Positions 3,357-62,840 of a stretch of 64,000 nucleotides of DNA are shown piece after piece. Made by a program: the position numbers and the translations under genes. This stretch comes from Anaerolineaceae bacterium (lineage in GTDB: Bacteria > Chloroflexota > Anaerolineae > Anaerolineales > UBA11657): contig BGOS01000017.1 in assembly GCA_003569365.1 (NCBI GenBank), forward strand, positions 838 to 64,837, read 5' to 3'. The notes under the pieces were generated by a model. It worked only from the letters and a program-made list of their open reading frames with translations. It was not told the origin of the DNA and made no database searches. Within the stretch, counting starts at the first letter, position 1. Each line of letters starts with the position of its first letter.

Positions 3357-4757
3357 CTACTTGCGGTAGCCTCCGTCGAGAGCTACCTGATTGAAGACAT
3401 CGTTTGTCTTCTTGATGGCCTCGTCGAGCGTGATCTTGTCGACAACGTAATCGGCAAGGTACTGGGTCATTTGTGTGCCGGCATCGGCAAACTCAGGAAT
3501 GGCTATGTACTGCAGACCAACATAGGGCACGGGGTCAATGGTCGGCTTGGTGAAGTCCATGGCCTTGAGCGCCTTGACGGTCATCGCCGCATAGGGAGTC
3601 TTGGAGTAAGCTGGCAAAGCATAGGTTGAGGTGCGCGCGGCAGGCGGCGTGCTCGAGGCCGGTGGGGTCAAGGTCTACCGACATCTTGGCGTATTCCTTC
3701 GAGGTGGCCCAAACCATGAAGTCGAAGGTGGCCTTCTTTTTGGCATCGCTGCTCTTGGGATTGATTCCCATAGCCCAGTTCCACAGCCAGGAAGTGTTGG
3801 TGGTCATCTTCTGGTGAGGAGCCATGGCATAGCCTACTTTGCCTGAACCTTGGACTCAGCGCCTTCCAGCGCGGGGGCAATGGAGGTGGCGTCATAGTAG
3901 ATTCCCGCTTTTCCGGACTGCATGAGGGCAATACACTCGTTGTAGGTGTAGGAAAGGATGTCTGGCTGGCCAGCATCGCGAAGAATATTTTTGTACATGG
4001 CCCAAGCGGCCCTTTGTTCGGGGGTATCAACCGTGGCGTTCCAATTCATGTCGTAGAACTTGCCGCCAAAGGCATTGACGATGGTTACGAAAGGAGCTCC
4101 GCTCATTCCCCAGCCGGGAGCGCCGCGCATGGTCATGCCTACGATGCCGTTGGCAGGATCATTGATCTTCTTGGCCAGTTCGTAGATCTGGTCCCATGTT
4201 GGTTCGTCGGGCATGGTGAGGCCCTTTGCAGCGAACAAATCCTTGTTGTACATGATGAACGAGCTCTCACCATAGAACGGGAGGGCAAACGACTGTCCAT
4301 CAACAGCCAGCGACCCCACCATTCCCTGAATCAAGTCAGGCCGATCATAGGCAGTCAGCTCGCCCGCGGGCATTGCCTTAAAGTAGGGTTCCAAGTTTTC
4401 CAGCCAGCCATTCTTGGCCCAGGAGGCAGCCTCATAGGGCCCGATGAAAAACATGTCGTAGCTCGTCCCGCCAGTCGACGCTTCAGTGGTCAACTTTTGG
4501 CGAAGGTCGTTTTCCGGTAGAACTGCAATGTTGACGGTTACTCCAGCTGCCTTGTACTTTTCCTTGGCAAGCTTGCTCAAAGCTTGGGAAATCGGGTTGT
4601 TCGCCAAAGCAATGTTGATGGTCTGGGCGGGCGCTTCGGCTGCAGGAACAGCCGCAGCCGGTTCAGCAGCAGGTGCTGGCGCGGGACTGGCACAGGCAGC
4701 CAGCACCAGCGCAGTAATGACTGCCCCCATCATTGTGGACCACAATTTCTTTTTCAT
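3357..4757 (-). CDS. Extracellular solute-binding lipoprotein (sugar ABC, family 1), with two frame breaks
   Basis: Three consecutive ORF pieces (3834-4757, 3535-3825, 3357-3671) read as one SBP. It has a signal peptide with lipobox (LVLAACAS) and an Ala/Pro linker. The breaks lie near 3850 (TT run) and 3664-3667 (G run). AAGGAGA SD lies upstream of ATG 4757. Confidence 0.8.
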
Positions 4758-5823: not shown

Positions 5824-7727
5824 TTATTCCACTAACACCCGCAGCGGCAGAATAAAGTGGTCCACCGCCGTCCCGCTGCCAACCTGCCCGGCCAACCGCA
5901 TCCCGGAATCGCGCTCGTACATGCCAATCTCTAAACGGTACACACCAACCGGCATGTCCGCCGGCAAAGCAATGCTGTGCGTGTCAATCAGCGTCTCGCC
6001 CGGCTGCCAGCTGTTTGTGGGGCAGCTGCCATTGCGCGGAATGCCATCGCCATCCAGTAAGTCAAACCATCTGGCGCAAGCAGATGCACAAACACAGTGT
6101 ACGAGTTGGCAATCGGCGCGCGCGCAAGCCAGAAGAGCGTGAGCTGCAGCTGGCCGCCGCGCTGCACAGCAGAACGCGCCAGCCGAAAACCCGTCAGCGA
6201 GATATCAGATCCGAAGTCCACGCGGTATGGTTGTTGCGCAGCCAGTGAGCCCGCCGGTGTGTCGAAGGTCTGCACGCGAAACCCGGCCACAAACTGGTCG
6301 TCTGTCTTTTCACAACATGCCTGCAGCCATTCGCCCGCAAAGCCTTGCGGGTCGTACAGCGCGCTGGGCGCAAAGAAGAACCGGACGTGCGCATAAGAAT
6401 CGCGCAGTTGTGCCAACTGCGCTGCGGCTGCGGCCCCGCCAATTTCTGCCAGCGGTGCCGCCGGCACGGCCTCCACCGGCATCGGCGCCCGGTAGTAATA
6501 ATAAAATGCCGGGTCCGGCAGGTTGAGCGCAACCACCTCATCCGCCCGCGCAGTCCGGACAAGATAGTCACTCACTGCGCGCCAATCCGGACTCTTGCTG
6601 TAGCGCGGGTTGAAGTAATAGTTGGAGAGTGACAATAATGAGATGGCGATGAAAGTTGTGTATGCAAAACTGCGGCCGGCTTTTCCCCACCAGCCCGCGG
6701 CCGCCAGCCCGCTCAGGCCGGCTGCCGCAAGCAGGCACACGCCGGGCAGGGCCACCAGCGCGTATTGCTCTGTAAACACCGGGCGGTAGAACGAAAGCAA
6801 CCACAACCACAGCGGCGTGCCCACGGCCAGCGCCAACACCCACGCCGCAGCCCGCAGCGCGCGCCGCAGCAAAAGCACACTGCCCCAAATGAGCAGCGCA
6901 GCCAGCACCAGCGCGCCAATGGCCTGATTCATCGGTGACGCACCGGCGCTCGCTTGCCCGGCACTGAAGACCGTCAGTAAGCGCCACAACACTTCCATGC
7001 TGCCTGCGGCACTGATCCAGCTTTTGGAGTGACCAACCAAGAGCGGCGCAACATATGCGAGCCACGGAAGTTGGGCAAGTGTGATGCCGGCACTCATCCC
7101 AAATGCAGCGCGCCAACGTGCGCGCGTGTGCGCCGCAACAATCAGTGCCAGCAAAATGGAGGCGAGCGCCAGCGCCGCAAAATAGTGCGCGAAAAGCGCC
7201 AGCCACCACAAGCAGCCCGCCCACACCCAAAGCTGCCAATCCCGCTTTTGCGCAGCGCGCCATGTAAGCCACGCCGCTCCCAACACCAGCGCCGCCAGCA
7301 GCGAGTAAACGCGTGCATCCTGTGCATACCAAACAAGAAATGGATTGAAAGCCGCCAGCACAGCCGCACCAGCTGCCGCCGGCTTGCCAAGCCACGCCCG
7401 GCCCAGGCGGTAGGTCAACGCCACCAGCACTGCACCAGCCAAAACCGATGGCCAGCGCAACGCCAGTTCACTGCTGCCGGCAATTGCAATCCAACCCTTC
7501 AGTGCCACAAAATATAGCGGCGGGTTGGGCTCGGATTGCAGCATGAGCGCCACCATCTCGCGTACGGGTTTGGCGGCCAGCGCCACGCTGAACCCCTCAT
7601 CGCCGCGCAACGCCGGGCGCCCCACCGCAAACGCCCGCAAACCAAAGGCCAGCGCCAGAATCCCAACCGGCAACAGCCCGGCAGCGTTGCCACGCTGCGT
7701 GCTGGAAGAATGTTTTGAGGCAGTCAT
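5824..7727 (-). CDS. Glycosyltransferase family 39 (PMT_2/ArnT-like) membrane protein, with one frame break
   Basis: Multi-TM N-terminal region (...RGDEGFSVALA...NPPLYF...FNPFLVWYAQDARVYSL...). The C-terminal part continues in another frame as ...GDGIPRNGSCPTNSWQPGETLIDTHSIALPADMPVGVYRLEIGMYE... down to the stop at 5824. The break is near the A run at 6064-6066. The start is taken as MTASKH at 7727. Confidence 0.75.
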
Positions 7728-7961: not shown

Positions 7962-10000
7962 TTACATGCAGTCACGCGCAACGCTGAAGTTCCACTGCTT
8001 GCGAAACACGGATTGACCGCCCTCAAATGCCTGCAGCGTATTGCTGGCATGAAAGTGCGTCGCGTCACTGGTGAGCGAGCTTTGCGTTTCGATGCGCGTT
8101 TGCCACTCGCCGCGCGCAAACTCCATCTGCCACTCGGTGGTGCGGCGTGCCGAAAGCGGATCGCCCTCAGTGATTTCAAAGCGCTCGGTGCACACTTCAT
8201 CTGTCAACAAGGCGCTGCGCGTTTGCAGCACGCGGCCTTCGTCTGTGCAGTCCACCAGCAAATATGTGCCGGCTGCGGCATCGTGCTGCAGCGTGCGCGT
8301 GTGCAGTGCCGGGCGCAGCCAGCTTTGCGCCAGCGGCGGCGCACACTCCGCCGGTTCAAACGGCGCCAGCGCGGCATCGCGCGGGTGCGCGGCGCGCAGC
8401 GGCAGCCGCAGCCACGTGTCATCGCCAGTGAACACCGTCAGCGTAACGGGCACGGGCGACGGCCACGCCATCAGCGCGTAAGTGGGCGAGAGCGCCAGCC
8501 GCCAGTGGTGGCCGGCCGGCAGCGCGTGCGCACAGGCGCTCAGCTGCAGCCGCACGCTATAACGCTGCCCGGGCTGCAGTGCCTCCGGCTGCAAGTGGCT
8601 GCTGCGATGCGCCAAATTCAACTGGCCCGAACTCACCAGCAGCGACGCGCCATCCGGCGCCACCGCACACAAGCGCGCAGCCAGCAGCGCTTGCGGCTGG
8701 TCTGCGGCCAGCTCCACGCTGAGCTCCGGATACCCCAGTATTTCCGTGCGTTCGCGCACTGGTTCGCTGTTGAAGCACAAGCTTTGGCCGTCGGTGGCGC
8801 GCTGGTCGGCGGGCAGGTCGCCGGCGTTGCCCATGGGAAAGAACACACCCGCATCCAGCCCGGTGCTTTGCAGGCCACGAATGCGCAAAGCGGCCACAGC
8901 CACCGGGCTGGCAGCCAGCGTTGCAGCGGGCTGCGGGTGCAGCTGTAAACCGCTGTGCGCTGCGCCGGCCATTCATCCTCCGCCACCCAGCGCCCCAAAC
9001 GATTTTCCAGATGCGTGCACGGCTCGATGCTTTCTTGCATCCACACGCGCACCCGCGGCTCGGCCATGATGCCGGTGTCTTTGCCCTTCAACCAATGGTC
9101 CCACCAGCGCAGGCACTCTTGCATAAAGCCAATCTGCGGGCCGGGCACGGCGCGCATCGCATACTCATGCGGCCACGGGCCAATCAGCGCCTTGCTTGGT
9201 GCGCGCAGCGCCGCCAGCAGCCGCAGCACGGTGTTGCTGTAGCCGTCAGCCCAGCCGCCCACCAGATAAACCGGGCACTCGATGGCTGCGGGGTCCTCGC
9301 ACACGGAGCCGTGCTGCCAATACGCGTCGCGCCGTTGGTGCGTCAGCCACGCTTCAATGTATGGCGGTGTGTGCTCCAATCGATCCAGCCACATGCTGCG
9401 CCAGCGCTCACCCACCAGCCGCGGGTCCGGCGGGCGGGCGTTGTATGCCAGCATCGTGGCTGCCCAGCCCGGCATGTCGGCCGTCATCAGGCAGCCGCCA
9501 CGGTAGTGCACATCATCTGCGTAGCGGTCATCGGTGGAGGCAACGCTGATCACCGCGCGCAGTTGCGGCGGCCGGCGCGCAGCAATCTGCAGCCCGTTGA
9601 AGCCGCCCCATGATTTGCCAAAGATGCCAACCGCACCCGTGCACCAGGGCTGCGCCGCCAGCCACGCCAGCACCGCCAGCCCGTCATCCTGCTCCTGCAG
9701 CAAATACTCGTCCAGCATGATGCCATCCGAGTCGCCGCTGCCGCGCATGTCCACGCGCACGGCCGCATAGCCGTGCCCCGCAAAGTAGGGTTGGTAGAGC
9801 GCATCGCGCACCGCCGTGCCGTCATTCTTCCGGTACGGGATGTATTCCAAAATTGCGGGCACCGGATTGCTTTCCGCGTCCAGCGGCAGCCAGATGCGCG
9901 CAGCCAGCTGCGTGCCATCCGGCAGCGCAATAAAAATACTCTCAATCTCGCGCACCGCACGTGGAAACTCAGTGCGCACTTGCATCAAAGATTTCGCCAT
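7962..10000 (-). CDS. CocE/NonD family hydrolase (X-Pro dipeptidyl-peptidase S15-like), with one frame break
   Basis: ORFs 8633-10000 and 7962-8972 join into one protein of about 680 aa. It has an alpha/beta-hydrolase N-domain with nucleophile elbow GKSWGG and a C-terminal beta-sandwich part. The break is at the A run 8947-8949. Confidence 0.8.
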
Positions 10001-22978: not shown

Positions 22979-24193
22979 TTACCGCATGGCCAACAGCAGT
23001 TTCTGCAATCGCAGGCCTAAAATATCGGCTTCGACTTCAGTAAGCCCTTGTGGATTGATAACAATAATATTTAGATCCGCATATGATTCGCCAACCGCAA
23101 TCGGCGGATCGCCTTCCAGTAGCATATTTACTAACTGATAACCACTGCATCCAAGCAAATTCTGGTCTAGGTGCACACTTAGGGTCGGGATGGGTTTCGA
23201 GGTAGATTGGGAACGTTCGATTCGCACGCCTGAGATCCCGTCAATCATGGGCTGAATGATGTCCAACACCGAACACCAGTAAACAGAATCAGAAATGTCG
23301 TTCCCAGACACATAACGGCGTAGTGCAGTAATAAGCCCAGCGACCTCTTCGCGACCAACCTTCATTGCCCTGCCAAATCCCTGATGTGGGATGCCATCCA
23401 GTTTTCCCTCCGCGAGAAGCGCGCGCTTGTTCCATGTTGCGGCAGTTACGTCCATGTCTTGATGTTGCAGCGCGACTGAAGCGATCAGATCAGCGCGCCC
23501 CGCCAGAATTCCACTCGCTTGCGGGCCTCCGATTGACTTTCCACCAGAAAACACGACAAGATCAGCGCCTTCTGCGATGAACCGGCGAAGATTTGACCGC
23601 GGCGGAAGTTGGGCAGCCGCATCAACAATGACAGGAATTCTTTTGGCATGCGCAATCACGCACACCTCTGGAAGGCTTACTGTGCCTGTTGTAGAAAGAA
23701 TGGGGCACGCAATAGCGGCCGTGTGAGCATTTATTGCTTCCGCAATTTGCCATGGTTGGGTCGACCCAGCTCCCGGATGCCCAAGATATCCCACCTCAAC
23801 CATGCGCACTCCAACTGCGCGAATCGCGTGATCGTAGCTATTTCTATGTCCACGCTGAACGACCACCTCATTTTTCATACCGGCGGTGTCTGGCAATCGA
23901 TCCATTTTGCCGACGTCAAGTCCTGCCACACACGCGGCGGTTGCCAGACTAAGACCCGCGGCAGCACCATTCACAATGTATCCAGCCTCTGCGCCAGTTA
24001 TCTGTGCAATGACCTTGCCTGCTTCTGCCTGCAACTCATCTATGTGCACGAAAGAAGCGCTGGCCTCGGCCATTGCATTAAGCACCTCCGCATCCAGGCG
24101 ACTACCACCGAGGCGCGTCAGGGGACCCGCCGCATTAATTATTGGCTTGACCCCAATAGACTTGTAAAACTCCATTACCTCTTTTGTGTGCAT
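22979..24193 (-). CDS. SelA-like PLP-dependent enzyme (DgaE/D-glucosaminate-6-phosphate ammonia-lyase-like)
   Basis: 404 aa. The N-terminus INAAGPLTRLGGSRL...GAEAGYIVNGAAAGL and the PLP-lysine context VFSGGKSIGGPQASGIL match the family. It lacks the N-terminal domain of true SelA and sits in a sugar-acid operon. Confidence 0.65.
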   Translation of the reverse strand: MHTKEVMEFYKSIGVKPIINAAGPLTRLGGSRLDAEVLNAMAEASASFVHIDELQAEAGKVIAQITGAEAGYIVNGAAAGLSLATAACVAGLDVGKMDRLPDTAGMKNEVVVQRGHRNSYDHAIRAVGVRMVEVGYLGHPGAGSTQPWQIAEAINAHTAAIACPILSTTGTVSLPEVCVIAHAKRIPVIVDAAAQLPPRSNLRRFIAEGADLVVFSGGKSIGGPQASGILAGRADLIASVALQHQDMDVTAATWNKRALLAEGKLDGIPHQGFGRAMKVGREEVAGLITALRRYVSGNDISDSVYWCSVLDIIQPMIDGISGVRIERSQSTSKPIPTLSVHLDQNLLGCSGYQLVNMLLEGDPPIAVGESYADLNIIVINPQGLTEVEADILGLRLQKLLLAMR

Positions 24194-56512: not shown

Positions 56513-57643
56513 CTAAAACAATCCGCCGCGCAGCACACCCAGCAGCGCCCCGCCCAGCAGCAGCCAGCTGGCAGAGATGCGCGTGCGCACAAGCAGCAGC
56601 AGCGCTGCCAAACCCAGCAGCGCGCCAGCCGGATCAGCCGCCAAGCCCCACGCCAGCTGCCCGGCCACCGCTGCCAGCAGCCCAAGCGAGGCAGCGTTCA
56701 CCCCGGCCAGCAAACCGGTGGCACCTTGCATGCTGCGCAAGCGCGCCAGCAGCGGCTGGGTAAGCGGCACAAAAATAAACGCCGGCAAAAAAATTCCCAG
56801 CGTCGCCAGCATTGCGCCCGGGAATCCGCCCAGCAGGTAGCCAATGAAGGTGGCGCTTGTGAAGAGCGGGCCGGGGGTCAACTGGCCGGCAGCCACTGCA
56901 TCCAGCAGCTGGCGCTCCGTTAACCAGCCCAGCCGCGCCACCAGATCTGCGCGCAAAAAAGCCAGCAGCACATAGCCACTGCCATAAAGCACTGCGCCAA
57001 TTTTCAGGAAGACCAGAAACAACAGCGGCAGCGCAAAGGGCAGCGCAGTGGCAGCGGCAACTGCCGGCAGCAGCAACACAGCCGCCGGCGGCACGCGCAG
57101 CTGCGGGCTGCCCAGCAGCCACCAGCCGGCAGCCGCGCCCGCCACCAGCAGCCCAACCTCGTTCACGCCAGCCAGCGCCAGCATCATCCCGCAAACTGCA
57201 ATCAGCAGGGTTTGCCAGCGCCGCAGCGCTGCGCGCCCCAAACCCAGCAGCGCGTGCGCCACCACGGCCACCACCACCGGCTGCACACCGGCCAGCAGCG
57301 CCAGCGCAGCCGGCAAGCTGCCAAACCGCACATAGGCGGCAGCCAGCATCAGCACGGAAAACATTGCGGGCGCAATAAAACACAACCCGGCCACCAGCAT
57401 GCCCGCATAGCCGGCGCGCTGCAATCCAATATGGATCACCAGCTCGGTGGAGTTGGGGCCGGGGATCAGGTTGGCCGCGCTCACCAGATCCAGAAACTGA
57501 TCCTCGCTGAGCCATTGGCGCCGCACCACCAGCTCTTGATGCAGCAGCGCGGTGTGTGCTGCGGGCCCGCCAAACGCGGTGCTGCCCAGGCGCAGAAATA
57601 CGCGCGCCAGTTCGGGCAGGGCTGCGCGCTGCCGCGCCGTCAT
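56513..57643 (-). CDS. chrA: Chromate transporter (CHR family)
   Basis: 376 aa with a duplicated CHR domain and LRLGSTAFGGPAAHTALLHQELV. Confidence 0.88.
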   Translation of the reverse strand: MTARQRAALPELARVFLRLGSTAFGGPAAHTALLHQELVVRRQWLSEDQFLDLVSAANLIPGPNSTELVIHIGLQRAGYAGMLVAGLCFIAPAMFSVLMLAAAYVRFGSLPAALALLAGVQPVVVAVVAHALLGLGRAALRRWQTLLIAVCGMMLALAGVNEVGLLVAGAAAGWWLLGSPQLRVPPAAVLLLPAVAAATALPFALPLLFLVFLKIGAVLYGSGYVLLAFLRADLVARLGWLTERQLLDAVAAGQLTPGPLFTSATFIGYLLGGFPGAMLATLGIFLPAFIFVPLTQPLLARLRSMQGATGLLAGVNAASLGLLAAVAGQLAWGLAADPAGALLGLAALLLLVRTRISASWLLLGGALLGVLRGGLF

Positions 57644-58086
57644 GGGCGGCGGGCGCTGTAGTCCGGCAGCCGGCGCTCATAACCAGAATGCAGCAGCGGC
57701 GAAGAAATCAAAAAGTCCGCGGTGGCCCGGTTGCAAGCCATGGGCACATTCCAAACCACGGCCATGCGCAGCAGTGCTTTCACATCCGGGTCATGCGGCT
57801 GCGGCTCAAGCGGGTCCCAAAAGAAAACCAGCATGTCCACAGCCCCGTCGGCAATGCGCGCGCCAATTTGCATGTCCCCGCCCAATGGGCCGCTGCGCAG
57901 GCAGGTGACGGTCAGCTGCAGCTCGCGCTGCAGCATGTGCCCGGTGGTGCCGGTGGCAATCAGGATATTTTTCTGCAGCCCGGCAAGGTTGAAGGCAGCC
58001 CACTCCAGCAAGTCGGCTTTCTTGTTGTCATGGGCCACGAGGGCAATGCATTTTTGCGCGGCAATGACAGGGGTTGGTTCAGGCAT
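57640..58086 (-). CDS. mgsA: Methylglyoxal synthase
   Basis: IALVAHDNKK, ATGTTG, SGPLGGD and DPLEPQPHDPDV. The start is set at the second ATG (58086), 6 nt after GGAGGA. It overlaps the chrA start by 4 nt. Confidence 0.92.
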   Translation of the reverse strand: MPEPTPVIAAQKCIALVAHDNKKADLLEWAAFNLAGLQKNILIATGTTGHMLQRELQLTVTCLRSGPLGGDMQIGARIADGAVDMLVFFWDPLEPQPHDPDVKALLRMAVVWNVPMACNRATADFLISSPLLHSGYERRLPDYSARRP

Positions 58087-58152
58087 TTGCATTCCTCCGG
58101 TTGGCGGGCAGCGTTACTTGCAGCCCGTGGCGAGATTGTCTTATTAATGAAG

Positions 58153-58171
58153 GCCGGCCAAACTGGCAGGC
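58153..58171 (-). promoter_or_regulatory. Candidate bacterial SECIS stem-loop
   Basis: In the mRNA sense: GCC-U-GCC [AGUUU] GGC-C-GGC. That is two 3-bp GC helices around a U/C mismatch, with GU in the apical loop. The loop starts 24 nt after the U of the in-frame UGA. Confidence 0.4.
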
Positions 58172-59607
58172 TAAAGCGGCTCTGCTCAGCAGAACCAGCT
58201 TTCCGTAAGGCCGGGCGGCGGCGGCCGCAAGCGCGGGCCGGGGGCCGGCGCAATCCGGCCGGCAGCGGCGTATGCCAGCTGCTCAACTGCAGCGAAGGTT
58301 GTACGCGCATCTTCTTCAGAGCGCGCAGCAGCTGCGGTGCAAGCGGAAACTTGCGCCCACAGCGCGTCCATGCGCGCGTCCGGATGCGTCCACGGGTGGC
58401 AGTAGTTCTCCGCGTCCAGCGCGCCCAGCCAGGCCGCATTGCCAAATTCACGCAAGAGCAGCGAACCCGGCGGGATCAGCAGGCGAATGCCCAGCTGCAC
58501 TGCATCAATGTGCTCCACCAAATCATTCGCGCGCAGCCACGCCAGCTGCTCCAGATAATCCGCCAGGGTTGTCCACGGCGTGAAGGCCACAAGTGAAATG
58601 CGCAGGGCAATGCCGGCAGCGTCCAATGTGCGCAGCGCAAGCTCCAGCTCCGCGCGCGTATGGCCCTTGTGCAGCGCCTGCAACACCGGCGCGGCCAGTG
58701 ATTCGACCGCCGACACCACAAACAAGCAGCCCAGCGCCGCAAACTCCGCAAACAACGCAGCGTTGGCCGCAATGTGCGAAACCTTCGCGGTGAAATCAAA
58801 AGTGACGTGGGGCAGCTGCTGGTGCAGGGCGCGCGCAATGCGCAGTGCATGCGCCGGCCCGTTCAAAAAGTCCGGGTCGCCAAAAGTAATGTGGCGCGCA
58901 CCGGCCGCCACTTGCGCGTGCACATCCGCCAGCACCGCCTCCACCGGCACTGCCACAAAGCGCCCCGCGTACACGGGCGGAATCGGGCAGTGCGCGCACA
59001 AGTGCTTGCAGCCGCGGGTGGCTTCGGTGTAGCCGGCCAGCTGCAGCTGGCCGTTGCTGCGCAGCTGCGCGTAGCACTGCAGCGGCTGCAAACCAGTGCG
59101 CTGCGGCTGCAACTCTGCGGCGGTGTTGCGGGTTGGCATGGCAGCGTCCGGGCAGTGCGCGGTGCGCACACCGGGCGGCGGCGCTTGGGCATCCCACGTG
59201 CCCTGCAGCACAGCTTGCGCCAGCTGCGGCAGCACGGTTTGCAGCTCGCCCGCCAGCACGCTGTCTGCATCTGCGTGAAACAGCTGCGCCGCATTCAGCG
59301 CAGCGTAATGCCCGTAAAAGCTGATGTGCGCTGCCGGGTTAAGCGCGCGCACAGCGCGTGCCGCCTGCACGCCCACGCGCAGTGCGGTGTGCATCGGTGT
59401 GGAGATGCCCACCCAGCGCGCACTGCGCACCGCTTGCGCATGCTGCGCCAGCGGCTCTTGCGCCAGGTCCACGGCGTGCGCTGCGATGCCGGCAGCCGCC
59501 AGCCACGCCAGCGGGGCGGCAACACCCAACGGCTGGTGTCCAAGCTCATAGCCGGACAGCAGCAGCACCGGCGCTGCGCTGCTGCCAGCGCGCTGCGCTG
59601 CGCTCAC
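58171..59607 (-). CDS. CUAEP-tail radical SAM selenoprotein (UGA at 58186-58188 read as Sec)
   Basis: It has a Rossmann/B12-binding-like N-domain and the radical SAM cluster motif GCKHLCAHCP. The ORF ends ...ESWFC-TGA, and read-through gives TGC TGA GCA GAG CCG CTT TAG = C-U-A-E-P-L-stop. The GTG start overlaps the upstream stop (GTGA). Confidence 0.75.
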
Positions 59608-61226
59608 GGTGCCACCTCCACCCGCAACAGCTCACTCGCTGCGCCGTTCACCAGCGTGCCGGCACAGGCGCTGCGATCTGCAGCGCACCCGAAGATTGCA
59701 AACAATGGCGCATCTGAAAGTAAATCGGTACCGTTGCTGGCAGCAATCAGAGTTTGCCAAATGGCGTACAACACGCGCAGTGCGCCGCCGGCCCGCGCCT
59801 GCTGCGGCGTGATATCGCCAATGCCAACCATCGGCTCAAAGTGCGACCACACATAGCCCTGCTTTGCGCCAGCAGCCACCGAGTCCTGATTGGCCAGCAG
59901 CACCACCAGCTGATCTAGATGAATGAAGGCAACGCTCTCCAGCCACTCGCTTGTACACAGCGCCAGCTCTGCGCAAGTGCGGTACGGAATGCCGGCTTGC
60001 TGCAAATAAGCACTTGCAGTTGCCAGCTCCGGGCGCGTGGCCTGCACCAGCCGCAGCGCGCGGATCTCCTGCAGCGCACCAGCCGGCTCCGCAGCGCTGC
60101 CCGCTTCCGCCCGCGCGCGCTTGAAGCGGTCATCAAAGAAGAACGGCTCCCCGCGCCCGAGGCGCGCTGTGGCTGCCTTCAACACCAGCGGCCATTGCGC
60201 CGGCTGCGGCGTGTGCAGCAGCACTACAGGGTTTGCGCCAAAATCCTGCGCATACAGCGGCGCATAATGTGCCACGTCGCCCCACTCCGGCACAAGCTGC
60301 TGCGCAGCCAGCAAGCCCAAAAGCAATGTGCCCGTTTGCTGCAGCGCACGCTGCGACAAGCGCACGCGCATGATGCCGGTGGGCTTCATCAGCGCAGCGC
60401 TAAACTGCAGCTTGAAGCGCAGCGCCACCTTGCCACCGGAGCCCAGTACTTGCGTTTCGTTCATAAGCTGCTTGGGCAGTTCGATGCCCAGCGTGTCTGC
60501 CCAAAATGCGTCAAAGGCCGCGCCGGCGTTCAGCGCCGCTGCCACATCCAGCCACAAATCTTCCGTGGCGCGCGGATCAATTTGGAACTGCGGTGCTTTG
60601 CCGTCCGGTGAAATTTGCAGCACCAGGCAGCCGCCGTGCAACGCTGCGTAGGCCGGCGCTTCGCCCGCCGGGAACGGCAGTACTTGCAGCGGGCCGGCAT
60701 ACTCCGGGCGCAGTTGAAAGTGGCGCGCGGCCGCATCCCACGCCCACAGAATTTGCCCGGCTGCATCTTGCGGAATGATGGCCCACTGCCGGCCGCTGCG
60801 CAGCACCGCCAGCGAGCCGCCCGCCGGCAGGCGCGCCTGCAGCGCTTGCTGAATTTCTGCAAACCCGGGCATGGCTTGTTGCGCCTGCCACTCCACGCCG
60901 CCGGCCGGCAGTTCCGTTGCCATCGGCAGCATGCTCTCCATTACCCGGTCAAACACACTTCCGTCGCACCCCAGCGGATTGGCAGCCGAGGGCTCAAGCG
61001 TGGGCACCGGCACGGGCGTGGGCAGCACCGGCAGCGTTGGCACAACTGGCAGCGCACCGGCAGCGGCCGTGCTTCCCGGGCGCACAACCAGCCGCGGAAC
61101 AGCTGCCGCACGCGCCCTTAACTCGGCGGTGCCGCAGCCCGCCAGCACTGCAGCCGCAAACATCAACGCTCGCGGCAGCTTGCTGGCGCAAAAAGTGCGC
61201 TCGATTTGGATGGAATTGGGGGGCAT
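59604..61226 (-). CDS. Hypothetical lipoprotein of about 540 aa with no recognisable domain
   Basis: It has a signal peptide with lipobox (KLPRALMFAAAVLAGCGT) and then a Pro/Val-rich linker. The ORF track starts at TTG 61262, but I prefer ATG 61226. TATAAT lies at 61271-61276 (minus strand). Confidence 0.6.
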   Translation of the reverse strand: MPPNSIQIERTFCASKLPRALMFAAAVLAGCGTAELRARAAAVPRLVVRPGSTAAAGALPVVPTLPVLPTPVPVPTLEPSAANPLGCDGSVFDRVMESMLPMATELPAGGVEWQAQQAMPGFAEIQQALQARLPAGGSLAVLRSGRQWAIIPQDAAGQILWAWDAAARHFQLRPEYAGPLQVLPFPAGEAPAYAALHGGCLVLQISPDGKAPQFQIDPRATEDLWLDVAAALNAGAAFDAFWADTLGIELPKQLMNETQVLGSGGKVALRFKLQFSAALMKPTGIMRVRLSQRALQQTGTLLLGLLAAQQLVPEWGDVAHYAPLYAQDFGANPVVLLHTPQPAQWPLVLKAATARLGRGEPFFFDDRFKRARAEAGSAAEPAGALQEIRALRLVQATRPELATASAYLQQAGIPYRTCAELALCTSEWLESVAFIHLDQLVVLLANQDSVAAGAKQGYVWSHFEPMVGIGDITPQQARAGGALRVLYAIWQTLIAASNGTDLLSDAPLFAIFGCAADRSACAGTLVNGAASELLRVEVAP

Positions 61227-61424
61227 GCAGCCAAATTGCAGGGGCTCTCGCCGTTTCGGCAACTGCTGCGATTATAGCCAGCTGGTGCACGCTTGGTGAT
61301 GCATTAATTTTCGCCTGTGCGCCATCCGGGACTTACCCGTGGCGGCTACACCAATCGCACGGGCTTGGACTGCAGCGGATAAACTTGTCTGCGCCCGCAG
61401 GCTGCAGACATGCACCGTGCCAAA

Positions 61425-61479: not shown

Positions 61480-62840
61480 ATGCGCAACACAGCGTGCCTG
61501 CCGCAATCTTGCTTGTTATCTAGCTTCATAATCATTGCGCTGCTAACGGGGTTGACCGCGCTGTATGTGGGCGCGGAGTTTGCTGTTGTAAAGTCACGGC
61601 GCACACGCATCAGCCAGCTGGCGGCTTCCGGCAACCGCTTTGCGCGCCAGCTGCTGCCCATCCTTGAGGACTCGCGCAAGCTCGACCAGTTTGTGGCAGC
61701 CTGCCAAGTGGGCATCTCCCTCACCGGCCTGCTGCTGGGCGCCTACGGCGAGGCCGTGCTGGCGCCGCGCCTGGCGCCGCTGCTCGGCGGCACACAATCG
61801 CATTCACTGGCTGCCACCATTGTGCTGTTGCTGCTCACCATCCTGCTGGTGCTGCTGGGCGAGCTGATTCCCAAGTCACTTGCACTGCAATATCCGCACC
61901 GCACGGCGCTGGCCAGCATGCTGCCAATGCGCGCTTCACAAATAATTTTTGCGCCGCTAATTTGGCTGCTGAACGGCAGCGCGCTTGTGTTGCTGCGCCT
62001 GCTGGGCCGCAGCGCTGCGCCGGTGCGTGGCAGCCTGCACTCCGCCGAAGAAATTGAGCAGCTGGTGGAAGACAGCCACGCCGGCGGCGTGCTGGATGCG
62101 GACGAGCGCCAAATGCTGCGCAACACGCTGCGCCTGCGCGACCGCGTGGCGCGCCAGGTGATGACCCCGCGCACCCGCCTGTACGCAGCACCGGCGGACA
62201 GCAGTGTGCATGCGCTGCTGCAAGGTGCGTGCGAAGCCGGCCACAGCCGCATCCCGCTCTACCGCAACACCATCGACCAAATCATCGGCTTTGTGCACAT
62301 CAAGGATGTGCTGCGCCTGCAGGTGCAGGGGCGCGAAAACCTGGCTGAGATTTGCGCGAGGCGGTGTTTGTGCCAGAGACGCTGCCGCTCGCCGCGGTCT
62401 GGGCCGCACTTGAAACCAAGCACCAATATATGGCCACTGTCTTCGATGAATACGGCGGCACCGCCGGCATCATCACCATGGAAGACTTGCTCGAAGAAAT
62501 TTTCGGCGAACTGCAGGACGAGTTTGACACCAAAGAAAACGCGCTCGTCTCGGCGGACAAAACCGGACGCCTCTTCCTGCGCGGCGAACTTTTGGTGGAG
62601 GATGTGAACGAGTACCTCGCGCTCAGCTTGCCCGAGCAAGAGATGGACACGCTCGGCGGCCTGGTGTTTGAGGCGCTTGGGCGGCGCCCCAGCGTGGGCG
62701 ACGAAGTGACGCTTGGCGTGCCGGGCATCTCGGTGCGCGTGGAAAGCATTGACGAGCTTGCCGTGCTGGAAGTTTCGCTGCTGCTGGGGCCAAAGGTGCA
62801 AACGCAAGTGGGCGAGTGGGCGGTGGCAGCGCGTGAATAG
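61480..62840 (+). CDS. CNNM/TlyC-family protein (DUF21 + CBS pair + CorC_HlyC), with one frame break
   Basis: ORFs 61480-62607 and 62352-62840 join into one protein. It has a DUF21 TM region (AEFAVVKSRRTRI), a CBS pair and a C-terminal transporter-associated domain. Adding one T to the run at 62351-62353 gives ...ENLAEILREAVFVPE... Confidence 0.85.

Follow-up and report, generated by a model that had tools for sequence, protein, structure and literature searches.

This locus raises the question of whether a radical S-adenosylmethionine (SAM) gene ends at its apparent TGA stop, or whether that codon is read as selenocysteine (Sec) and translation goes on for a few more residues. The gene lies on the minus strand of a 64,000-nt stretch of contig BGOS01000017.1 (here called the window, meaning the whole stretch of DNA analysed), whose source, an Anaerolineaceae bacterium, we take to be a planktonic freshwater Chloroflexi of the CL500-11 type. 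The open reading frame (ORF) 58186-59607 terminates in ...L-T-E-S-W-F-C, followed by TGA at 58188-58186, and beyond this codon the same frame runs through Ala-Glu-Pro-Leu to a TAG at 58173-58171. An earlier reading of this DNA, made from the letters without database searches (the sequence-only reading), had described the ORF, its radical SAM motif and this tail, and had taken the TGA for a Sec codon; each of the sequence elements that it listed is present. We consider it very likely that the gene encodes a 478-residue member of the NCBIfam family NF040546 with UGA 58188-58186 recoded as Sec, a confidence that covers the identity of the protein and the recoding only. The proposed gene is laid out as follows.

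58171-59607, minus strand: full coding sequence of the proposed CUAEP-tail radical SAM selenoprotein, from GTG through the UGA (Sec474) and AEPL to the TAG; 478 residues.

58186-58188, minus strand: in-frame UGA, the proposed Sec codon for residue 474, which alternates with Cys codons in homologues and is kept in the clade.

58174-58185, minus strand: four post-Sec codons for Ala-Glu-Pro-Leu (GCA GAG CCG CTT), as read from the sequence.

58987-59010, minus strand: CxxxCxxC motif C200-x3-C204-x2-C207 within GCKHLCAHCP, the radical SAM [4Fe-4S] ligands, from the translation and Pfam PF04055.

The GTG start (59607-59605) has a GGAGG 9 nt upstream of it and shares bases with the TGA that ends the upstream ORF, in a GTGA. 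With the U entered as C, the read-through protein scored 609.3 bits (E 4e-183) against NF040546, whose curated cut-off is 500 bits, and residues 14-478 aligned onto profile positions 1-462 of 468, that is, to the last residue of the protein. The next-best NCBIfam family, ArsL (NF040542), reached 255 bits, under its cut-off of 450 bits, and its alignment stopped at residue 421, before the tail. Pfam PF04055 (Radical_SAM) matched with 33.9 bits against a cut-off of 29.5. C200, C204 and C207 fall in columns of the family alignment that do not vary, and the window protein retains every residue that is invariant in the family; the two share the CxxxCxxC motif, the YELGHQP, PMHTA, FTPWTT and HPD blocks, and the ...TE-x-WFC-U-AEP tail. 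The assignment to the CUAEP/CCAEP-tail family proposed from the letters is thus upheld by the profile, above the curated cut-off and with the tail read through. The gene belongs to a family that NCBI has already modelled and named: MDA1217451.1, a cluster mate at ≥90% identity, already carries the family name there. The family is very large (about 8,000 protein clusters at E ≤ 1e-20) and its phyla include Chloroflexota, Acidobacteriota, Nitrospirota and Poribacteria. The sequence-only reading had described it as a family without a known function, and it is listed as uncharacterised and is among the few selenoproteins with a Cys-Sec dipeptide (Haft, bioRxiv 10.1101/2022.07.06.499078).

What the homologues carry at the TGA position bears directly on the question. 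A scan of species-representative genomes yielded 80 loci (L001-L080), and the motif could be located in 78 of them. The codon after WFC was TGA in 60 and TGC or TGT in 18, and in every case an AEP followed in frame, save for SEP in three loci and VEP in one, usually continuing as T-x-x-Q-F/L. The best 120 protein homologues behaved in the same way, some ending in ...WFC and others running on as WFCCAEPT..., and residue 474 was Cys or Sec in every homologue examined. The split between TGA and Cys codons, with the peptide conserved downstream, is the classic signature of Sec/Cys alternation. The comparison of orthologues suggested beforehand therefore came out in favour of Sec, and the argument that a Cys-stop-AEP arrangement is unlikely to be a chance product also holds, since NF040546 aligns through the tail and a TGA or Cys codon followed by AEP recurs in 78 loci. 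The megaplasmid of the cultured Thermomicrobium roseum (NC_011961.1; L088 8935-10443) has the TGA form too, with an AEPL... tail that reads through as U-AEPLEDPSGPVASQVRMVDQPLR; RefSeq names this protein as a family member, yet its coding sequence ends at the TGA. The neighbours of the gene in Thermomicrobium roseum include a pyridoxal phosphate (PLP) aminotransferase, an MFS transporter and a large GNAT acetyltransferase.

The truncation by gene callers that had been anticipated is general in the clade of the window: all its database entries have 473 residues or fewer, none runs past the TGA, where the record of the window itself, 'hypothetical protein EMGBS3_03370', also ends. Since the apparent TGA stop most likely encodes Sec, the database copies are five residues short, and every one of them stops at the TGA and so is without the family-defining residue.

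A bacterial selenoprotein gene is expected to have a selenocysteine insertion sequence (SECIS), a stem-loop at a suitable distance 3' of its UGA. In the E. coli fdhF-type SECIS, a GC-rich hairpin lies just 3' of the UGA and has a G-U in its apical loop about 20 nt downstream. The candidate in the window is the following.

58153-58171, minus strand: SECIS-type hairpin GCCUGCC-AGUUU-GGCCGGC, apical loop at 58164-58160, supported by the RNA fold, by model R1 (below) and by conservation in the clade.

This hairpin is 19 nt long, with 3+3 base pairs flanking one U.C mismatch, and its apical loop contains a G-U. It starts on the G of the TAG stop and lies in the 3' untranslated region. The sequence-only reading had been right about a GC-rich hairpin with GU in its apical loop, and had counted 13 nt between it and the UGA, where the actual spacer is 14 nt. 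The window element resembles the fdhF type in being a GC-rich hairpin 3' of the UGA with a G-U apical loop; it differs in that its loop, like that of the family, is A-G-U-U-N, in having no evident bulged U, and in standing outside the reading frame. We also considered the hairpin as an intrinsic terminator and rejected this, as no U-run follows it and a terminator scan did not call the site.

Across the family, the 59 TGA loci that were long enough aligned gap-free over the stretch between the UGA and a CAGUU apex, whose loop A stands at +20. Covariation was tested on the 48 sequences that have the 5-nt loop register. In their 7-bp stem, 85.7% of the stem cells were paired, compared with at most 50.5% when the partner columns were slid; two-sided changes occurred in 6 of the 7 stem pairs, and the observed covariation score was reached by none of 500 shuffles. 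The Gln-Phe/Leu conserved in the peptide tails corresponds to CAG-UUN of the SECIS loop. We then built a covariance model of the hairpin alone from the 48 homologues, leaving the window out (model R1), and searched all 64 kb of the window on both strands (128 kb) with filters off. The expected site, 58151-58173 on the minus strand, was matched with 12.3 bits (E 0.61) at rank 3, and was alone among the top three in having no loop insertion. The two higher-ranked matches (56864-56892, in chrA, and 6280-6304, in a 622-residue ORF) lie inside uninterrupted ORFs, so no UGA precedes them, and among the top matches only 58151-58173 follows an in-frame UGA. The chance that one of three such hits in 128,000 positions falls within about 11 positions of a pre-specified UGA is about 2.6e-4. 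The hairpin proposed as SECIS-like from the letters therefore matches a covarying family consensus with a CAGUU apex and, by its conservation in the lineage, is under purifying selection.

What sets the window apart is where the reading frame stops. In each of the other 60 Sec-form loci the Sec codon is followed by 10 codons or more, just enough to contain the hairpin, and the 58 of them whose stop fell within the 30 codons read have 10-25 residues after Sec; the window clade has four, the shortest post-Sec tail seen in the family. Because only four codons follow, the stop comes before the hairpin loop and reaches into the base of the stem, so that a SECIS which elsewhere in NF040546 is embedded in at least 10 further codons here stands behind the stop codon. 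The clade is thus a natural truncation experiment, in which nothing past C-U-A-E-P-x need be translated. It follows that residues beyond AEP-x would be dispensable for the protein, and that the Gln-Phe/Leu of the longer tails is probably an imprint of the SECIS RNA and not a protein requirement.

A further structure surrounds the UGA itself.

58175-58200, minus strand: palindrome AGC-GGUUCUGC-UGA-GCAGAGCC-GCU, which could place the UGA in a triloop (minimum-free-energy fold).

The palindrome results from the codons for W-F-C-U-A-E-P. The same position is palindromic in 59 homologous loci, and GGUUCUGC UGA GCAGAGCC is perfect in the window. In this structure the U of the Cys codon pairs with the third base of the Ala triplet, and the latter base is a purine in 56 of 60 Sec forms and in 10 of 18 Cys forms (p = 5e-4), and there may be an RNA-level constraint around the UGA.

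The element has been kept in close relatives. NCBI (GCA_003569105.1, 'Anaerolineaceae bacterium' EMGBS3), ENA and Logan all have contigs that encode the identical protein, and relatives at 94% and 91% protein identity come from an NCBI Chloroflexi metagenome-assembled genome and a JGI metagenome. TGA-GCA-GAG-CCG-CTY-TAG plus the hairpin is retained in all seven independent assemblies of the clade. The sole change in the tail codons is synonymous (CTT/CTC, in the relative L082), and the hairpin changes only at loop base 5 (U/A), which is also free across the whole family, and at the two mismatch positions of its 5' arm, which have U, A, or G with a shifted mismatch. The stretch that begins with the TGA and closes with the hairpin has 3 variable columns out of 36, and the remaining spacer up to mgsA has 31 out of 68 (Fisher p = 7e-5). 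By this comparison of aligned sequences, the element is evidently under purifying selection in the lineage. TGA is the commonest ordinary stop in the window, ending 12 of the 22 genes with full-length family matches, and a Sec reading must therefore be site-specific. Many metagenome assemblies of ENA, JGI and Logan contain near-identical genes, and the lineage seems abundant and widespread; we found no literature on CL500-11 together with selenocysteine.

Several observations weigh against the recoding of this UGA. Taken alone, the R1 match to the hairpin is not significant window-wide, and the region does not stand out in fold energy (z = -0.71). Compared with every one of the 59 aligned family members, the distance from UGA to loop is 2 nt greater, and the stem is interrupted by the U.C mismatch. 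No Rfam SECIS or other RNA family was matched, either in the whole window at gathering thresholds or in 58080-58260 at permissive E-values. In addition, no selA, selB, selD or tRNA-Sec is present in the 64-kb window or in the 10-kb flanks on each side. The window gave no tRNA at all with ARAGORN, nor did 55 related loci give a tRNA-Sec, and a tblastn search with E. coli SelA, SelB and SelD against the window and all loci gave, in the window, only a weak SelA-like match at 23474-24019. The ORF in question (22979-24193, minus strand) was rejected as SelA, as it scored 217 bits with DgaE and 54 bits with selA, below both cut-offs; it is a 404-residue PLP enzyme of the SelA superfamily, a paralogue of the DgaE (D-glucosaminate-6-phosphate ammonia-lyase) type. 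The surrounding DNA has a lower GC content (49-57%, compared with about 62-65%) and forms a sugar-acid utilisation cluster, which also includes a sugar ABC transporter, an SDR and an IlvD-like dehydratase. A selD homologue was found only in two Blastocatellia genomes (L002 3995-4912 and L050 1966-2991, both on the minus strand; 36-37% identity to E. coli SelD), 1.4-1.8 kb upstream of the CUAEP-family gene. The L002 gene is the Cys form, and the L050 gene runs off the contig end, so that its form is not readable.

One rival is that the TGA has become a real stop in this lineage, for instance after loss of the Sec machinery, so that the protein ends in ...ESWFC, and AEPL and the hairpin are relics. 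The DNA searched holds no Sec machinery, TGA is the usual stop of this genome, and the uniquely short tail and the loop shifted by 2 nt are what would be expected after an indel in a decaying tail. A relic should drift, however, and the 36 nt from the TGA are much better conserved than the adjacent spacer although the proteins compared are 91-94% identical; the changes seen in the hairpin are confined to positions that are free in the family SECIS, the one change in the tail codons is silent, and residue 474 is never anything other than Cys or Sec in the homologues. Given the purifying selection that acts on the element, we regard a relic stop as improbable.

Two other accounts of the TGA fare worse. 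Several other genes of the window appear truncated or split relative to relatives, so frameshifts are present in the assembly or the genome, which would fit an in-frame TGA created by a sequencing or assembly error, or carried by a pseudogene. The same TGA and tail are found, however, in seven independent assemblies (NCBI, ENA, JGI and Logan), the TGA occurs in 60 species-level genomes as well, and no invariant family residue is lost, which leaves this explanation with hardly any probability; we treat it as effectively excluded. Reassignment of UGA across the genome, for example to Trp or Gly and without any Sec, has no observation in its favour and is at odds with the use of TGA as the end of 12 of 22 well-matched genes and with the Cys, the usual counterpart of Sec, that homologues have at this position; it is also effectively excluded, with a probability close to nil.

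Under recoding as Sec, which we favour, the hairpin at 58171-58153, 14 nt past the UGA and with its AGUUU loop, would act as a bacterial SECIS. With the ribosome positioned at the UGA, the hairpin would be bound by SelB in complex with Sec-tRNA(Sec), and Sec would be inserted; four more codons (AEPL) would then be translated, with termination at the TAG, which shares a base with the hairpin's foot. The SECIS of this lineage would thus act from the 3' untranslated region, provided that Sec is inserted. That insertion actually takes place in this organism is something we infer from the family and from the conservation of the element.

If the tail is Cys-Sec, what might it do? By homology, the protein would consist of an N-terminal Rossmann-like domain, a radical SAM barrel and a C-terminal strand ending in the vicinal pair Cys473-Sec474.

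59220-59568, minus strand: N-terminal Rossmann-like domain of the B12-binding type, about residues 14-129, from a Pfam PF02310 match below cut-off and the predicted fold.

The match to PF02310 (B12-binding) is weak, with 22.8 bits against a cut-off of 32.1. The AlphaFold2 model of residues 1-473 has a mean predicted local distance difference test score of 92, the Pro-rich linker 449-470 included, and of 60 for the last three residues. Its best Foldseek matches are AprD4 (6fd2), TsrM (6wte/6wtf) and OxsB (5ul3), with E 1e-15 to 1e-16 and template modelling scores of 0.57-0.67, and it also resembles MgmA and MiaB. AprD4, TsrM and OxsB differ from the window protein in sequence, with only 16-19% identity, and none has a Cys-Sec tail. 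AprD4 is not known to use cobalamin, and the fold resemblance to TsrM and OxsB is no greater than that to AprD4. A sequence search of the PDB gave one marginal match, 9ccb (E 0.008), and neither sequence nor fold searches of the PDB returned a structure of ArsL.

ArsL, the RCCLKC-tail enzyme of arsinothricin biosynthesis (NF040542), is the nearest characterised relative. It shares the two-domain architecture, and differs in that the linker before the tail is about 46 residues longer in the CUAEP family, which also has Sec. The Bacillus cereus RCCLKC-tail protein is 34% identical over the core, and its tail Cys-Cys aligns with the Cys-Sec across a gap of 46 residues. In ArsL, SAM cleavage yields a 3-amino-3-carboxypropyl radical, which is attached to an As(III) held by the tail cysteines, and when this tail is removed or mutated no product forms and SAM cleavage persists (10.1101/2024.02.01.577332; 10.64898/2026.04.29.721666). 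By analogy, the tail chalcogenolates of Cys473 and Sec474 could hold a soft atom, such as a metalloid or a chalcogen, at the SAM site, and the SAM-derived radical could then form a carbon-heteroatom bond on that atom. ATP-grasp ligase genes near both families, and the selD adjoining the family gene in the two Blastocatellia loci, speak for the analogy. Because ArsL is the nearest characterised relative, we prefer an ArsL-like mechanism on a substrate held by the Cys-Sec pair, although only tentatively: the ArsL profile score is below cut-off, the RCCLKC motif with its three As(III)-binding cysteines is absent, so that in the C-U-A-E-P-L tail of the window only the vicinal pair aligns and two chalcogen ligands stand in place of three, and the window has no ars genes, unlike the B. 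cereus RCCLKC locus with its arsR, ACR3, arsC, arsD and arsA. C294 was considered as a third ligand of the tail-held atom. It is specific to the family, the B. cereus ArsL-type protein having Val there, but the model places it where a barrel strand begins, and we make no claim for it.

The conserved neighbours of the family in other phyla point equally to cluster chemistry. An Nfu-type scaffold gene lies immediately downstream in 32 of 68 family loci, and a YggX iron-trafficking gene immediately upstream, often overlapping, in 24 of 70; one or the other is present in 46 of the 59 loci with both flanks, and their co-occurrence is rare (6 loci). These neighbours suggest an unusual dependence on Fe-S supply. 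The Cys-Sec pair might accordingly be a redox-active selenenylsulfide arm, or it might ligate or accept an Fe-S cluster that Nfu supplies, in an enzyme with canonical 5'-deoxyadenosyl radical chemistry. Vicinal Cys-Sec is a known redox motif: mammalian thioredoxin reductase, unrelated in fold and family, has a C-terminal Gly-Cys-Sec-Gly (GCUG) redox tail, with Cys-Sec next to the C-terminus as in the window protein, and the C-terminal cysteine pair of ribonucleotide reductase offers another parallel. The nearest folds (AprD4, TsrM, OxsB and MiaB) are mechanistically mixed and do not point to ArsL-type chemistry. Against such an arm, the equivalent tail of ArsL, the closest characterised relative by sequence, binds a substrate atom and involves no auxiliary cluster; C473 and U474 are all that the tail offers, with C294 nearly invariant elsewhere in the protein, which makes few ligands for such a cluster; and the clade of the window has neither Nfu nor YggX as a neighbour. 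We regard a redox or cluster arm as possible, and hold it just as tentatively as the ArsL-like mechanism.

A wider proposal, and a rather more doubtful one, carries the preferred ArsL-like mechanism to the whole family: CUAEP-tail enzymes would be non-canonical radical SAM enzymes that form a C-Se, C-As, C-Sb or similar bond on an atom held by Cys-Sec, yielding an amino-acid-type organo-metalloid or organo-chalcogen metabolite to be elaborated by ATP-grasp ligases or formyltransferases, with C-U-A-E-P-x as the whole functional tail and a SECIS that can lie wholly in the 3' untranslated region. The relationship to ArsL and the recurrence of Nfu/YggX neighbours at least provide two concrete functional hypotheses for a very large family. 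Given that the family was already known, the novelty of the locus is low, and what is new is modest: a family-wide SECIS consensus, a four-residue tail with a post-stop SECIS, and the Nfu/YggX association.

The window gene itself has other neighbours.

59604-61262, minus strand: upstream ORF, an orphan with a lipoprotein-like LAGC signal; 552 residues from the first possible start, 519-540 as called in relatives.

57640-58092, minus strand: mgsA (NCBIfam and Pfam hits), starting 78 nt after the TAG.

56513-57643, minus strand: chrA (NCBIfam and Pfam hits), with an ATGA overlap with mgsA.

The usual Nfu, YggX, ATP-grasp and formyltransferase neighbours of the family are here replaced by these three genes. 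Through the GTGA, the radical SAM gene is translationally coupled to the lineage-restricted lipoprotein ORF, which is syntenic in L081-L087. This ORF matched no Pfam or NCBIfam family and has only 3 clusters, all at ≥83% identity, among 5.8 billion proteins; with no family and only these near-identical clusters, it is uninformative on function. The mgsA-chrA synteny recurs in relatives, and both genes are probably co-transcribed with the radical SAM gene. Further neighbours in the window include hut genes and CNNM.

Elsewhere in the family, three contexts were seen: (a) the radical SAM gene followed by Nfu, with ATP-grasp on either side and sometimes an ATG22/MFS transporter, in Acidobacteriota, Rokubacteria/Methylomirabilota, Gemmatimonadales and others; (b) one or more ArsB-like permeases, a divergent formyltransferase and YggX-radical SAM, in Ktedonobacteria and other Chloroflexota; and (c) radical SAM-DUF169, in Poribacteria and Nitrospirota. 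The neighbouring ATP-grasp (of the L-amino-acid-ligase type) and formyltransferase genes suggest the further processing of a small molecule.

As for the other apparently truncated or split genes of the window, the CNNM gene (61480-62607, plus strand) encodes 375 residues with an aberrant C-terminus, against 442-453 in close relatives. A CocE/NonD hydrolase has 455 residues against 674, and a sugar-binding protein is split into 104 + 307 residues against 466 in relatives; the sites of these two are 8633-10000 and 3357-4757, both on the minus strand. These genes represent either assembly frameshift errors or real pseudogenes.

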